A DNA stretch of 46,602 bases. Source: a virus. The translations under genes and the position numbers were made by a program. The notes under the pieces were generated by a model, which saw nothing but the letters and a program-made list of their open reading frames with translations, ran no database searches and was not told the origin of the DNA. Below are positions 37,807-46,602 of the stretch, one piece after another. How positions within the stretch are numbered: position 1 is the stretch's first letter; the number at the start of each line of letters is the position of its first letter. Where the stretch lies: UHGV virus genome UHGV-0186543. One strand, written 5' to 3'.

Positions 37807-37874
37807 AATTACCTCGAATAAAAAAATTGCATTATTTGCACAATTTATTATTCGTTTTCACATCGCGAAGTCTA

Positions 37875-37901
37875 TAAAAAAGAAGACCCGCCGAAGCGGG
37901 T
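37875..37901 (-). terminator. possible terminator at left edge of accessory island
   Basis: hairpin ACCCGCCGAAGCGGGT with A-rich tract on plus strand (U-rich on minus). Confidence 0.35.
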
Positions 37902-38315
37902 TAGTAAATCATTTGTGCCAAATTATAAGACCACACCGTAAGCTTTTATATGCGTCCTATGGTTATAGCTCATATTATATGCTTCAAAAATATCTATTCT
38001 TTTGTTCTAACGTCAACACCTACCCTTAAAAGATTAATTCTCTAAGAATGAGAGAATGTTGTGTGTATTAGATAAGATATGAGCTGACACATCTATGGCG
38101 TGAAGACAAATTTAATCTGACAGTCCACTTTTTTGCCAGAGCGGATATCGCAAGCGTTAAGTCAGATATTTGAAAACGCATCGTTATCCTGGTTGGGATA
38201 CTTGCACTACTTTTAGGCGTACTGCTATCTTGCACAGTTATTCAAAGGTAATTTTTTCTTTATTAGTAGCCTACTTCCAGGGGCTTGTACAACTGACAAA
38301 ACGAGGGAGATCCCC

Positions 38316-39095
38316 ATGAGCAACAAAGATTTTTCACTTTTTTATTTTGCAACCATTGATCGGTCTTACTTCCTCGACAAACACAATTTTTATGTTGCTG
38401 AAGCCAGAAAGCGTCTATTTTCGCAGTTTAGCGATTCTGATCTTGAAGCTGATGCCAGGCAGAGAGAACAAGATTACTATGAGGCCGCCGGTAAGCGTTT
38501 TGACCCCGATTATGACGACGAAGGGGCTATCTGTGAACAGGCTCATGATGAAGGAATTTCACATTGGATTGCTCTCAGTGATATGAAAAATACGGTTTCA
38601 CTTGCTCTGACAGCAGGAATGTTTCATCAGTTCGACAAGGAACTTCGAGAGAAGTGTATCAGAGAATTCAGCCATTGGCTCGACGCTAAATCCGTAACAT
38701 CGATGATCTGGGACATTAGCTTCCCAAGGCTAATTGAAATTCTAGAATGGATTGGGATGGATATCACCAGCAAGGCTTATTACGAAAAAATCGATGCCTG
38801 TCGCCAAGTGGTTAATGTTTATAAGCACGGTGATGGCCATGCCCATCGGGTGCTTTCCGTCGCGCATCCTGAGTATTATCAGGATATCAATATTCCAAGA
38901 GGCTACAGATTTAGTCTACGTCATGAGCAACTTGAGGTTACAGAAACACAGTTTATAGAGTTTGCAGATGCGATTACAGCTTTCTGGAATGATATCCCAA
39001 CATACTGTATGCGCTCAGCTATTCGGGAAGAACCTGAATGGATAAATGGCGAATATAAAAAACATGAGAAGAAAGTTAAAATGCTTCAGGACTAA
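38316..39095 (+). CDS. hypothetical protein (accessory island gene 1)
   Basis: 259-aa ORF with SD GAGGGAG; no recognised domain. Confidence 0.5.
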   Translation: MSNKDFSLFYFATIDRSYFLDKHNFYVAEARKRLFSQFSDSDLEADARQREQDYYEAAGKRFDPDYDDEGAICEQAHDEGISHWIALSDMKNTVSLALTAGMFHQFDKELREKCIREFSHWLDAKSVTSMIWDISFPRLIEILEWIGMDITSKAYYEKIDACRQVVNVYKHGDGHAHRVLSVAHPEYYQDINIPRGYRFSLRHEQLEVTETQFIEFADAITAFWNDIPTYCMRSAIREEPEWINGEYKKHEKKVKMLQD

Positions 39096-39180
39096 AATTC
39101 TTGATAATAGCAAGTGTATCCTACATGTAGACATTTGCCTGCCGTGTCTTTTAGCTACCCTAGCTGCGAGAACAATTACG

Positions 39181-39288
39181 AACTTCCGCTCCTCGCTCAC
39201 AGCGAACTTTCAACTCAGTTAGCTTGCCCGCTTCGTACCAAAAGCGGGCATTGCTAACATCTATCTCCATCAATCTGTGGGAACAGCT
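39181..39288 (+). repeat. island repeat copy R1 (~100-bp structured element)
   Basis: AACTTCCGCTCCTCGCTCACAGCG...hairpin GCCCGCTTCG/AAGCGGGC...GCTAAC...GGGAAC; first 25 nt identical to R2. Confidence 0.7.
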
Positions 39289-39573
39289 CGCCGTAATAGC
39301 ACATTGAATTCTATGTCTAAAAGCAGATGATCTGGTTTGCCGGGAAATTTACAAAATGACGGCGTCTCTTGTTAGAGATTCTCCCTGCTTCACACTGCTG
39401 ATTCTTCATGGATTTTAGTATAATTAGTGAAAAAAAATTTTTTGGTTGTTATCATATACATGAGGACTTCTTCAGAGGAACTGAGAAAAATTCGGGGATC
39501 ACTGAACACAATGACAATTAAGAAGATTAACTGTCTGGTAAGTGATTATTTTATTCATTAAAAAACAAACATC

Positions 39574-44388: not shown

Positions 44389-44519
44389 TTAAATATTTTA
44401 ATCACCATCGTGCTGGCTGCCATCGCCTATATGGCGTTGCCTCATCACTCGAATCCGAATGCATAATCTTATCCGAGTGGGGAAAGTGCACCACCAAAAC
44501 ATCGAAACAGGAATAGAAA

Positions 44520-45080
44520 ATGAACGGAATATCAAAAATCATCTTAGCACTGACCGCTGGATTTACGCTGTCCGGATGTGTAAGCCATACCCAAAAAAAT
44601 TCACAACCAGATCCGGCTGCAATCGAGGCGGCAAAACTTGCGCAGTACACCGATTCACAGCTTTGCCAGGCAGAAGATAATATAGAGCCATTGCTCAACC
44701 TTAATCCATCATCTCATCCTGAATTTAATGAAAATTATCGCCGCGCCCAGGCTATTAAAAAGGTGATCGCCTCTCGTAATTTAAGCTGCTACCGCCTGAA
44801 AATGGAGAGGGCAGAACAGGCCACACCAGCACGCCCGTTAAGCCCACGACAAAAACAAGCGAGGGCATCCGCTGTTTGCCAGGCTTACGCCCAGCGTACC
44901 CGATTTGCGGATCCGACAGTCACATTTCAGATGTGCGGGAAAGGATTCCAGTCTACTTCGGCAAAATGTAAGGAAGATTTGGCGAGTTTTGAACGTGAGT
45001 CTCAGAAACTTAGAGGTACGGCCAGAGCGGAATATGTTGAAATTAGCAGTGCATTTCGGGCAGGCTGTGCTTTAAAATAA
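44520..45080 (+). CDS. lipoprotein of unknown function
   Basis: 186-aa ORF with signal peptide and lipobox (FTLSGC). Confidence 0.5.
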   Translation: MNGISKIILALTAGFTLSGCVSHTQKNSQPDPAAIEAAKLAQYTDSQLCQAEDNIEPLLNLNPSSHPEFNENYRRAQAIKKVIASRNLSCYRLKMERAEQATPARPLSPRQKQARASAVCQAYAQRTRFADPTVTFQMCGKGFQSTSAKCKEDLASFERESQKLRGTARAEYVEISSAFRAGCALK

Positions 45081-45533
45081 AAAATGAAGTAATATTAATA
45101 ACGCAATTGAATTTAAAAAAAATCAATGCCTACTCGGTGCCATATACAGCCATGGTTATTAACAGCAGGGAATAATTCCACACTGAAATTAAATGTCTGC
45201 CTTTTACAGTAGAAATAGTTTCTCCAGGACACTATCCATTGCCGGGCACAATCACTCGGGGTATAACGATATAAAATATGTTCATGATAGTGCAGGTTCG
45301 TATATTAAGTTCAGCAGCGAAAACATGCCTTACAGGTTTCCGGTTTTGGGAGCGTCGTTACAGGATCCTGCGCATACCGTTCCCATCTGTTGAATTAAAG
45401 GTTTCACAGCCTTTGCCGATATCGCCTTTTACCTTGCCTGTGATGCGTTCAGTGCTCAGCGTTGTTTACTGTAGCTCTCGGGACTGATTACAGACCGCGT
45501 CTTAAAAACCAATCCTTACTCTAAAGGGAATTC

Positions 45534-46457
45534 ATGAGATTAAAATACTCAGTACTCTTACTCGCCATTGCCCTTACAGGCTGTGATAACAAAAAAGATG
45601 AGATCGGTTGTTCTTCGGAAATAACCCAGTCAGCTCTCATGGATTTATTAAAAAAATCTGCTTATGAAGGACTCTCTGAACAGGTCGATAAATACCCTGA
45701 TGTCACTAATCAGACCAAACGAAGCACATTGGACAAGATCAAACTAGCCATCTCTGAGATCTCCACAACATCAAGTGACACGGGCAGCACAATGAAAACT
45801 TGTGAAGGGACCGTGACGATGACTCTATCTGCGAACGAGTACGTCCAGCTTTCAGATGCTTACAGAAAGAATTTTAATCGTAATCTCGACAAGCAAATGG
45901 AAAGCCTGTTTTTGGAGAACAACGCAAACGCCTTTTCCAAACGTATCACCTACACCGTGCAGGCGACCGACGATCAGAAAAACGTTTTTGTAAAAACCTC
46001 TTCTGATAATCCGATATCAGTGGGCGCCGCTTTACTGACATCACTTTCTATTATCAACCCGATCGTTGAGCAGCAGAAAATCCAGCAGGCTAAGGATGCC
46101 CAACAGAGCCAAATTGAAGCGGAACAACAGGTGCAACTCAGGGCGCAGGAACAGGCTAAGTATGAGGCGGAGAAGCAAATAGAGAGACAGGCACAACTTC
46201 AGCCACAAAAAGCTGACAGCCTTGATCAGTCCCGAATGGCATTTGCGAATGCCGACTCTGATTTGAGTACCGTCTGGAGCAAGTTAACCCCGGCGAAGAA
46301 AAAAGATTTGCTGCCTTCTCAGCGTCAGTGGATCAAAACTAAGGATGCTATGTGCGGTAAAGTTTCAATGCAGGGAACAGATGCTGAAGTCAAGAAAATG
46401 CTCGACTGCCAGACGCAAATGACCCTTTCAAGAATCGCTTTCCTCAGAAACCAATAA
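45534..46457 (+). CDS. lipoprotein with C-terminal LprI-like (DUF1311) domain
   Basis: 307-aa ORF with lipobox (LALTGC), Gln-rich coiled-coil middle, C-terminal QRQWIKTKDAMCG...LDCQTQMTLSRIAFL resembling DUF1311. Confidence 0.5.
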   Translation: MRLKYSVLLLAIALTGCDNKKDEIGCSSEITQSALMDLLKKSAYEGLSEQVDKYPDVTNQTKRSTLDKIKLAISEISTTSSDTGSTMKTCEGTVTMTLSANEYVQLSDAYRKNFNRNLDKQMESLFLENNANAFSKRITYTVQATDDQKNVFVKTSSDNPISVGAALLTSLSIINPIVEQQKIQQAKDAQQSQIEAEQQVQLRAQEQAKYEAEKQIERQAQLQPQKADSLDQSRMAFANADSDLSTVWSKLTPAKKKDLLPSQRQWIKTKDAMCGKVSMQGTDAEVKKMLDCQTQMTLSRIAFLRNQ

Positions 46458-46471
46458 CTGAAGTTTCCTTC

Positions 46472-46504
46472 AAGCTGGCGCCTGGTGTTAACCTGGTGCC
46501 AGCT
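46472..46504 (+). terminator. long imperfect palindrome/stem-loop after the last island gene (putative terminator or protein-binding site)
   Basis: AAGCTGGCGCCTGGTGTTAACCTGGTGCCAGCTT, ~15-bp stem centred on GTTAAC; no U-run follows. Confidence 0.3.
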
Positions 46505-46602
46505 TAGTCATCAAGTACATACGTTACAGTTTTACATGGGCGGTACTTTGACAGAGTATTCGGCCTCGTGCTGGTTGTGACTAAATACCTTTTTAAGCGC
46601 AA

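Follow-up and report, generated by a model that had tools for sequence, protein, structure and literature searches.

What is the accessory gene block of the viral genome UHGV-0186543, whose whole analysed stretch of 46,602 nucleotides (nt) is called the window below, and how is it put together? An original prediction, made from the sequence alone, had placed at 37807-46520 an island that might serve anti-phage defence or superinfection exclusion. The block is present there, with every open reading frame (ORF) that had been listed: proteins of 259, 220 and 455 amino acids (aa), GIY-YIG and HNH nuclease-domain proteins, and two lipoproteins. Our reading is that positions 37903-45124 form the cargo slot of a lambdoid prophage, filled with tandem cassettes bounded by short palindromic (HP) sites, and that by homology one cassette carries the restriction enzyme CMoRE while the others probably serve defence or exclusion. 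We give this reading a probability of roughly three in four.

A known restriction enzyme in the island

Can any of the island genes be named? The original prediction had found no match to a nameable defence system, and on this point it was mistaken, as the GIY-YIG gene encodes one:

42266-43072, plus strand, CMoRE/PD-T4-3 GIY-YIG gene, with matches to PADLOC PD-T4-3 and PDB 9U7U

Judged by its sequence, this protein is PD-T4-3/CMoRE. The PADLOC model (PDLC04031) matches with E=6.9e-138, residues 16-271 of the ORF spanning profile positions 1-254 of 256, and a phmmer search aligns the protein with the crystallised enzyme 9u7u_A (E=4e-164) at ~93% identity over chain residues 5-262, with a single one-residue gap. 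A second crystallised CMoRE, PDB 9U75, is matched with E=1.8e-151. The two-domain architecture of the crystal structures, in which an N-terminal GIY-YIG domain is followed by a C-terminal sensing domain, is matched end to end. The likely start is the ATG at 42266 (268 aa) rather than the TTG at 42221; numbered from that ATG, the motif G-W-Y17-V-Y19 ... F-Y31-V-G keeps the GIYxY-YIG tyrosines Y17, Y19 and Y31 intact, and the acidic autoinhibitory loop is kept as VDDDDEL (DDDDE). The roles of these tyrosines and of the loop are taken from PMC12923530.

PD-T4-3 comes from the screen of Vassallo et al. 2022, and CMoRE was described by Liu et al. 2026 (PMC12923530; PDB 9U7U, 9U75). CMoRE is a single-protein type IV restriction endonuclease that degrades DNA with 5-hydroxymethylcytosine (5hmC) or glucosyl-5hmC, the C-terminal domain sensing the modified cytosine and the GIY-YIG domain cutting, and it reduces plating of phages T2, T4 and T6 by about five orders of magnitude through direct action, not abortive infection (PMC12923530). 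PD-T4-3/CMoRE has been shown to work in a native clinical host as well (bioRxiv 2024.12.20.629700), and activity is known for the APEC O1, O157:H7, Klebsiella, ECOR68 and NILS69 alleles (PMC12923530; bioRxiv 2024.12.20.629700).

CMoRE is found alone in ~114 genomes, without the HNH gene that follows it in the window. A CMoRE-HNH pair was considered and ruled out because of these solitary copies and because CMoRE functions alone. In strain UTI89 (L004 4169-7883; L numbers label the comparison loci), the CMoRE gene occupies one end of a prophage close to ssrA, and a 629-aa DUF262 protein is encoded two genes away. DUF262 is a GmrSD-type domain, and the 629-aa protein could be a second modification-dependent nuclease.

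Cassettes bounded by palindromic sites

How are the genes of the island arranged? The original prediction had mentioned neither cassettes nor a repeated element between them. A repeat search uncovered three same-strand copies of an element of ~65-110 nt, located between the AT-rich genes and before CMoRE, each with a conserved tail. The element is made up of two inverted 22-nt palindromic sites of the form TCCGCT-N10-AGCGGA, separated by a variable spacer of 14-20 nt: HP1 is TCCGCT-CCTCGCTCAC-AGCGGA and HP2, roughly the inverse of HP1, is TCCGCT-CTGTGCCAGG-AGCGGA. Chance would supply 0.035 such sites per shuffled window. The junction elements, together with a degenerate site read from the sequence farther left, are as follows:

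38123-38144, plus strand, degenerate HP2 site TCCACT-N10-AGCGGA, closing the first cassette on the left
39185-39248, plus strand, junction element E1: HP1 at 39185-39206, HP2 at 39227-39248, tail to ~39290
40384-40441, plus strand, junction element E2: HP1 at 40384-40405, HP2 at 40420-40441, tail to ~40490
42093-42150, plus strand, junction element E3: HP1 at 42093-42114, HP2 at 42129-42150, tail to ~42205, which is the CMoRE upstream region

In addition, position 45133 in the conserved right flank resembles a decayed HP2 site. These sites divide the slot into four putative cassettes:

38123-39206, cassette C1: 259-aa protein
39227-40405, cassette C2: 220-aa membrane protein
40420-42114, cassette C3: 455-aa protein, inverted
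42129 to ~45124, cassette C4: CMoRE, HNH protein and 186-aa lipoprotein

Copies of the element are 75-85% identical over 60-110 nt, and all copies in one array share the same orientation regardless of the orientation of the genes. Folded as single-stranded DNA, four of the five copies reach z-scores of -3.4 to -5.2, the lowest being that of E2 (-5.2). The junction element occurs in 790 of 5426 complete Escherichia coli genomes, at one to four places in each and always in unannotated intergenic DNA.

Do the sites coincide with the limits of the DNA that is shared between contexts? In six of seven cross-context comparisons, homology stops inside an HP site or no more than 15 nt from one, which suggests a shared mechanism of cassette exchange:

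38134-39199, extent of homology, 259-aa gene against CT01
39203, end of homology, 259-aa gene against Moellerella
42136, start of homology, CMoRE against UTI89, the CMoRE upstream region being common to both
42111, end of homology, 455-aa gene against L002
42113, end of homology, 455-aa gene against Serratia
L012 6022-10291, extent of homology, HEC-08 block, L012 against L030

Units with HP2 on the left and HP1 on the right were found at 10 other loci. Such units lie in the P2 Z/fun slot of Escherichia phage 899, in a Klebsiella P4-like satellite, in CP4-type islands, in E. coli CT01, and in the alternative cargo of the hotspot described below. An exact 14-mer scan of viral contigs gave mainly chance hits, which were filtered by blastn. 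No description of the element was found in the literature searched, and it matches no Rfam family. A known RNA was ruled out as its identity by this result and by the lack of covariation. An integron attC site was also rejected, as the RYYYAAC ... GTTRRRY core motifs were not seen on inspection and neither IntI nor any other integrase lies in or beside the slot.

A variable slot in a lambdoid prophage

The window is a lambdoid E. coli phage or prophage displayed as a circular permutation, and all of its genes fit one phage genome. As displayed, the antirepressor gene and the island lie at opposite ends, so that the predicted position of the block, between the antirepressor and the nin-type genes, is correct in circular order only. 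Window position 46602 runs straight into position 1 in L018, L020, L001 and L012, which include IMG/VR contigs and complete E. coli genomes, and in strain E24377A (L001) the same prophage, at tRNA-Ser/mtfA, has the order ORF6N antirepressor, island, nin, Q; the island therefore truly lies between the antirepressor and the Q-side nin genes. The slot and its surroundings comprise the following features:

33-869, minus strand, antirepressor gene (ORF6N/Ant type), phrog_4792 anti-repressor match with E=1.3e-162, conserved right-hand flank across the circular junction
37165-37806, minus strand, 213-aa backbone gene, full-length phrog_5215 match, conserved left-hand flank beside differing cargo in L012, L013 and L025
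37886-37901, minus strand (that of the early transcript), terminator-like GC hairpin, ACCCGCTTCGGCGGGT and then a T-run, from a terminator scan
37903-45124, variable cargo region of 7.2 kilobases (kb), delimited by homology breakpoints against L012, L013 and L025

Backbone homology to related prophages stops at 37902 and restarts at 45125. The genes for the 213-aa protein and the 307-aa LprI-like lipoprotein are thus conserved flanks and not cargo, and the predicted block of 37807-46520 has to be narrowed to 37903-45124. The left edge of the variable region coincides exactly with the hairpin at 37886-37901, which precedes the 213-aa and nin genes on the early-transcript strand and may be a tR-type terminator that requires read-through by early transcription.

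Is the slot a hotspot? The original prediction had proposed a comparison with related phages, and the answer is clear: because related prophages keep the flanks and swap the cargo, this is a true hotspot. The flanks are 97-99% identical, and five different cargo sets lie between them (in the window, L012, L013, L025 and L063). The exact island is present in 6 of the 5426 genomes, at 99.1% identity, and several hundred others have only the flanks. In ST131-type prophages the cargo consists of an ImmA/IrrE gene, a 201-aa gene, a 366-aa HEC-08/DUF3644 gene, an integrase fragment, an ETEC_3214 gene and a 269-aa gene. HEC-08 is a PADLOC candidate system (E=1e-173 in L012), and the ImmA/IrrE protein of the alternative cargo is capP-like. 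Other prophages have shorter cargo sets or a different GIY-YIG nuclease at the slot, and the IMG/VR relative L063 has three other small cassettes and then CMoRE, directly beside the antirepressor. Validated anti-phage cargo is thus represented by CMoRE (window and L063) and candidate cargo by HEC-08 (L012), most of the remainder being uncharacterised. The locus therefore has what marks a phage-encoded defence hotspot, namely conserved flanks, variable cargo and a validated system. The modules of the window are also distributed separately, with CMoRE found alone, the 455-aa gene beside a type I restriction-modification (RM) system and DarTG, and the 259-aa gene at a prophage end.

Two further segments of the hotspot deserve mention. 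A 162-bp non-coding segment (37984-38145) is 87-88% identical in several hundred E. coli genomes, and ~400 of the 481 matching records hit this segment only. In those genomes its place in the hotspot is a different one, behind the ImmA/IrrE and 201-aa genes, and there it terminates in a perfect HP2 site, as is seen in L012 and L013; the copy in the window ends with the degenerate site at 38123-38144. The segment has the look of a conserved leader that precedes the first cassette. A 4.3-kb block comprising the HEC-08/DUF3644 gene, the integrase fragment, the ETEC_3214 gene and the 269-aa gene is 99.8% identical at two places (L012 6102-7202; L030 843-1943). In L012 it lies in the prophage hotspot and in L030 elsewhere on the chromosome, beside a TonB-dependent receptor gene, and HP2 and HP1 bound both copies.

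The predicted AT-richness of the whole 8.7 kb stands as an average: GC content is 41.5% in 37807-46520 against 49.2% in the remaining window, and no 8.7-kb stretch outside the block falls below 45.3%. Strong AT-richness is nevertheless limited to the left 4.3 kb (37900-42200), with 36.7% GC overall and 29% in the 220-aa gene, whereas 42201-45100, at 47.6%, is backbone-like. Early rightward transcription follows the minus strand of the window, on which the Q, nin, antirepressor and replication genes all lie. Of the seven island genes, the 455-aa gene alone shares that strand; the other six, on the plus strand, run antisense to the early operon. Terminator-like sites, scanned for the promoter-gene-terminator arrangement of morons, number 13 (8.3 +/- 2.9 expected).

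Three uncharacterised protein families

What do the AT-rich cassettes encode? Their three proteins match no known family.

38316-39095, plus strand, 259-aa protein, all-helical and of an uncharacterised family; a single-gene defence candidate
39574-40236, plus strand, 220-aa protein with five predicted transmembrane helices and a C-terminal tail of ~65 aa, from hydropathy analysis
40573-41940, minus strand, 455-aa protein, uncharacterised superfamily; no other cargo gene lies on the early-transcript strand

The 259-aa protein has 86 homologue clusters in alpha-, beta- and gamma-proteobacteria, none of them with a Pfam domain, and the family keeps H23, H104, K108, R111 and the motif N-V-Y-K-H171-G invariant. 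Its AlphaFold2 model is confident and all-helical (predicted local distance difference test score, pLDDT, of 91.4). Its relatives follow the tail genes in a Moellerella prophage, stand at one end of a prophage in E. coli CT01, share the gpA-portal hotspot of a Paraburkholderia P2-like prophage with PycTM and DUF5677 genes, or belong to an integrative element that carries a CHAT protease; no conserved partner gene was found among these neighbourhoods. The predicted fold shows at most a weak resemblance to HEPN. In an alignment of 34 sequences, however, the invariant N167-V-Y-K-H171-G-x-G has no conserved Arg 4-6 residues upstream of H171, so that the HEPN motif Rx4-6H is absent. HepS was tried as an identity and ruled out, there being no PDB sequence match and no HepS among the fold hits, and the protein should not be classed as HepS or as a confirmed HEPN protein.

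The 220-aa protein belongs to an orphan family of only four homologue clusters. A Klebsiella P4-like satellite that also has Septu carries an 85% identical copy in its variable end, behind the primase gene. A two-gene system of the 259-aa and 220-aa proteins was ruled out, since the two occur apart and without a conserved neighbour; in Klebsiella, the 261-aa protein encoded next to the 220-aa homologue bears no relation to the 259-aa one.

The 455-aa protein has 31 close clusters in Enterobacterales, and a profile search extends the superfamily to 461 representatives of ~450 aa, with no Pfam or PADLOC match among them. Scanning genome contigs with the 455-aa alignment gave two loci, and the wider alignment holds no stretch conserved enough to scan with. 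One set of relatives lies beside a type I RM system with an embedded DarTG. In Morganella (L006/L007 8001-11033), where relatives occupy the P2 gpA-portal hotspot, the gene for a 534-aa Ser/Thr kinase comes next, and the same pair occurs in Serratia (L005 8001-11038). The kinase, which is missing from the window, matches the PD-T4-6 and mad6 models with E about 1e-30 to 1e-35, and the two genes could form a two-gene system in Morganella and Serratia. On plasmid-like contigs of Yersinia and Pantoea (L008/L010 6896-9374), distant homologues (40% identical) follow, at a gap of ~10-13 nt, a conserved 361-363-aa protein without any family match, so that the operon partner in the Yersinia/Pantoea subclade is probably a different one.

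The HNH protein and the lipoproteins

Downstream of CMoRE lie three more plus-strand genes, the last of them in the conserved flank:

43153-44388, plus strand, 411-aa protein with a C-terminal HNH_2 nuclease domain (PF13391, 34.2 bits against a cutoff of 21, residues 319-367)
44520-45080, plus strand, 186-aa predicted lipoprotein with lipobox LSGC, found only in the six whole-island genomes, alongside the HNH gene
45534-46457, plus strand, 307-aa lipoprotein with lipobox LTGC (residues 14-17) and a C-terminal LprI/DUF1311 domain (PF07007, 31.1 bits against a cutoff of 22, residues 226-304)

The 411-aa protein matches phrog_23050 over its full length, its N-terminal ~280 aa match nothing else, and in E. 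coli its gene occurs only together with this exact island. The 186-aa lipoprotein gave no family match in PADLOC, Pfam, NCBIfam or phrog searches. The 307-aa protein has both the LprI/DUF1311 domain and the signal expected of a lipoprotein, and is predicted to be an LprI-like lipoprotein; its gene, a conserved flank of the phage lineage, stands beside every cargo variant but L063.

The first 32 nt of the 307-aa gene (45534-45565) are an exact match to a type I-E CRISPR (clustered regularly interspaced short palindromic repeats) spacer in many E. coli, for example in AR_0372, where the spacer adjoins cas2e. In the sense of the CRISPR RNA (crRNA), the protospacer is preceded by 5'-ATG. This trinucleotide is an interference-proficient protospacer-adjacent motif for type I-E systems. 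Counting both prophage genes and spacers, the 32-mer is present in 562 genomes, and at two places in just one genome.

The rest of the phage genome

After the antirepressor, in window order, come a DnaB-type helicase gene, a YdaT gene and a Cro/CI switch, and YbcO/DUF1364 and DUF1367 nin-type genes lie between Q and the 213-aa gene. The other backbone features are the following:

11155-12201, plus strand, phage integrase, the sole integrase in the window
~13 to 32 kb, minus strand, structural genes
33953-35087, minus strand, lysis genes
35200-35871, minus strand, Q

The E24377A copy of the prophage (L001 699-4399) carries ISEc62, an insertion sequence of the IS21 family, inside its portal gene and is therefore probably defective; the portal gene of the window itself appears uninterrupted.

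A model for the island and its alternatives

How might such an island work? Each cassette would open with HP2 and close with HP1, and where two cassettes meet they would form the HP1-spacer-HP2 junction element. CMoRE encoded by the lysogen would restrict T-even phages with hydroxymethylated cytosine, and the unmodified prophage DNA would not be a substrate. The remaining cassettes would be independent accessory genes, expressed in the lysogen from their own promoters; a role in defence or exclusion is most likely, because the genes run antisense to the early operon and have relatives in established P2, P4 and genomic-island defence slots. In the lytic cycle, early transcripts would have to run through the island in antisense before they arrive at the hairpin (37886-37901) and the nin/Q genes. 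Finally, the cassettes would be swapped between mobile elements through recombination at the HP sites. On our reading these sites mark what moves, and the route could be a dedicated recombinase, hairpin-directed transposition, or homologous exchange between conserved linkers. A bolder proposal is that the TCCGCT-N10-AGCGGA sites are the ends of an unrecognised or forgotten class of small mobile cassettes that carry anti-phage or accessory genes, depend on a dedicated site-specific or hairpin-directed recombinase, and are exchanged among the lambdoid prophages, P2-like phages, P4-like satellites and CP4-type islands of Enterobacterales. We offer this only tentatively and think it rather doubtful.

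Several observations weigh against the model. The prediction of a defence or exclusion island is borne out by one gene, that for CMoRE with its ~93% identity to a validated enzyme; the other six genes are candidates by context, and for the 259-, 220- and 455-aa proteins this means association only. Five of the six non-CMoRE island proteins match no PADLOC, Pfam or NCBIfam defence family, and the only PADLOC match among the six, to the HNH domain, is weak. The activity of the window's CMoRE is itself predicted from sequence identity to the enzyme of APEC O1, whose allele, the closest to it, is weak from its native promoter (PMC12923530). Sigma-70 promoter-like sites are no commoner than chance would provide (27 against 21.8 +/- 4.1 expected). 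As for the junctions, the HP sites show no covariation, their arms being conserved as sequence, and no recombinase is linked to them. Cassette C4 has no right-hand HP1 site, and in the Klebsiella 220-aa cassette homology ends 4 nt before HP1 and an extra gene lies inside.

Perhaps, then, the cargo other than CMoRE consists of genes for lysogenic conversion or fitness: envelope lipoproteins for lysozyme or serum resistance, a membrane protein, and nucleases for the phage's own homing or recombination. The 259-, 220-, 455- and 186-aa proteins, without a defence-family match, are consistent with this view, as are the annotation of the LprI domain as a lysozyme inhibitor and the predicted export of both lipoproteins, and HNH_2 domains occur also in lytic Salmonella and Pantoea phages, so that a homing-type role is plausible. 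Considering, however, that relatives of the three AT-rich genes lie in P2/P4 slots shown experimentally to hold defence (PMC9122126), or beside RM/DarTG, Septu, PycTM or a PD-T4-6-like kinase, that the adjacent cassette carries a proven defence gene, and that the alternative cargo has HEC-08, we regard this explanation as unlikely. Much further down the scale is the view that the island is inert baggage, horizontally acquired AT-rich DNA that is silenced (for example by H-NS) in a decaying prophage. The left half, at 29-42% GC, is typical of xenogeneic DNA, and the IS21 element in the portal gene of the E24377A copy would fit with decay. It is difficult to reconcile such baggage, though, with seven ORFs that are intact and 99% conserved in six complete E. 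coli genomes and three IMG/VR viral contigs, with the invariant residues that the 259-aa and 455-aa families keep over wide divergence, or with the activity of CMoRE alleles of this type from native promoters (PMC12923530), and we consider it very improbable.

The junction element invites a different explanation, in which it is a REP-like (repetitive extragenic palindromic) or moron-type regulatory module, acting as an mRNA 3'-end stabiliser, an antisense insulator or a shared promoter region, and the cassettes are shuffled by ordinary homologous recombination. PeSL elements in T4-type phages have reportedly been proposed to let cassettes shuffle in this way, between conserved linkers, and the identity between the copies of the junction element would suffice for occasional homologous exchange. 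The stable hairpins, the position of the element downstream of plus-strand genes, and the absence of an associated recombinase all agree with a regulatory module, as does the 3' tail, which is common to the CMoRE upstream region, where the native promoter fragment of the published clones lies. Yet the hairpins have no U-tract behind them, and the arms are kept as sequence without compensatory change, which indicates recognition of the DNA by a protein rather than an RNA structure. Moreover, HP1-only or HP2-only sites stand at the outer ends of arrays and behave as inverted terminal repeats of single cassettes in unrelated elements, and the element keeps a constant orientation within an array, whatever the orientation of the genes. 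We take this alternative seriously, while giving it rather less than an even chance.

Relation to known systems

As a phage locus, the island is of an ordinary kind, a prophage defence or moron hotspot with one already known system. The CMoRE/PD-T4-3 protein of the window is a full-length member of a prophage-encoded, single-gene system, ~93% identical to the APEC O1 enzyme. Nothing in the protein sets it apart from the family. What differs here is the cassette, in which CMoRE comes first of three genes; the HNH_2 nuclease and lipoprotein genes that follow it are missing from other CMoRE loci.

The P2/P4 hotspots (Rousset et al. 2022, PMC9122126) likewise have conserved phage flanks and variable cargo that includes known and candidate defence systems. 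Some of the cargo is held in common, since the P2 gpA-portal slot houses relatives of the 455- and 259-aa proteins and the end of a P4-like satellite a relative of the 220-aa one; the junction element occurs in the P2 Z/fun slot. The slot of the window differs in being lambdoid, between the antirepressor and the nin/Q genes and not next to cos, and in its tandem cassettes with palindromic junctions; PMC9122126 makes no mention of intergenic, palindromic or hairpin features. The HepS/RemAIN region of Gifsy-1 (Sargen et al. 2026, PMC13043305) is also lambdoid, with solo defence genes near replication and antirepressor genes. The 259-aa protein resembles HepS in being solo and helical, with at most a weak likeness to HEPN, but it matches no PDB chain and has no Rx4-6H.

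How does the array compare with better-known cassette systems? Integron cassette arrays, CALINs (clusters of attC sites lacking integron-integrases) and the pdif modules of Acinetobacter are tandem cassettes bounded by short structured or palindromic sites, in constant orientation, and are found across unrelated replicons. The array in the window likewise consists of tandem cassettes of few genes, with boundaries that coincide with the sites. In contrast to those systems, it has no IntI, no attC cores and no likeness to dif, and inverted sites lie at both ends of a cassette, as in a transposon, rather than one attC.

Implications

Three unannotated families, one of them with at least 461 representative clusters, can be nominated as single-gene defence candidates, and each recurs in validated hotspots. 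The HP sites mark cassette boundaries in several unrelated mobile elements as well as in the E. coli genomes counted above, and if they are recombination sites, they would account for the exchange of cargo between hotspots and for the way hotspots are filled. The junction architecture, if confirmed, is the most interesting part of the locus. The HP sites would then be usable as a sequence tag for finding new defence genes, with the 259-, 220- and 455-aa families the first to be considered.

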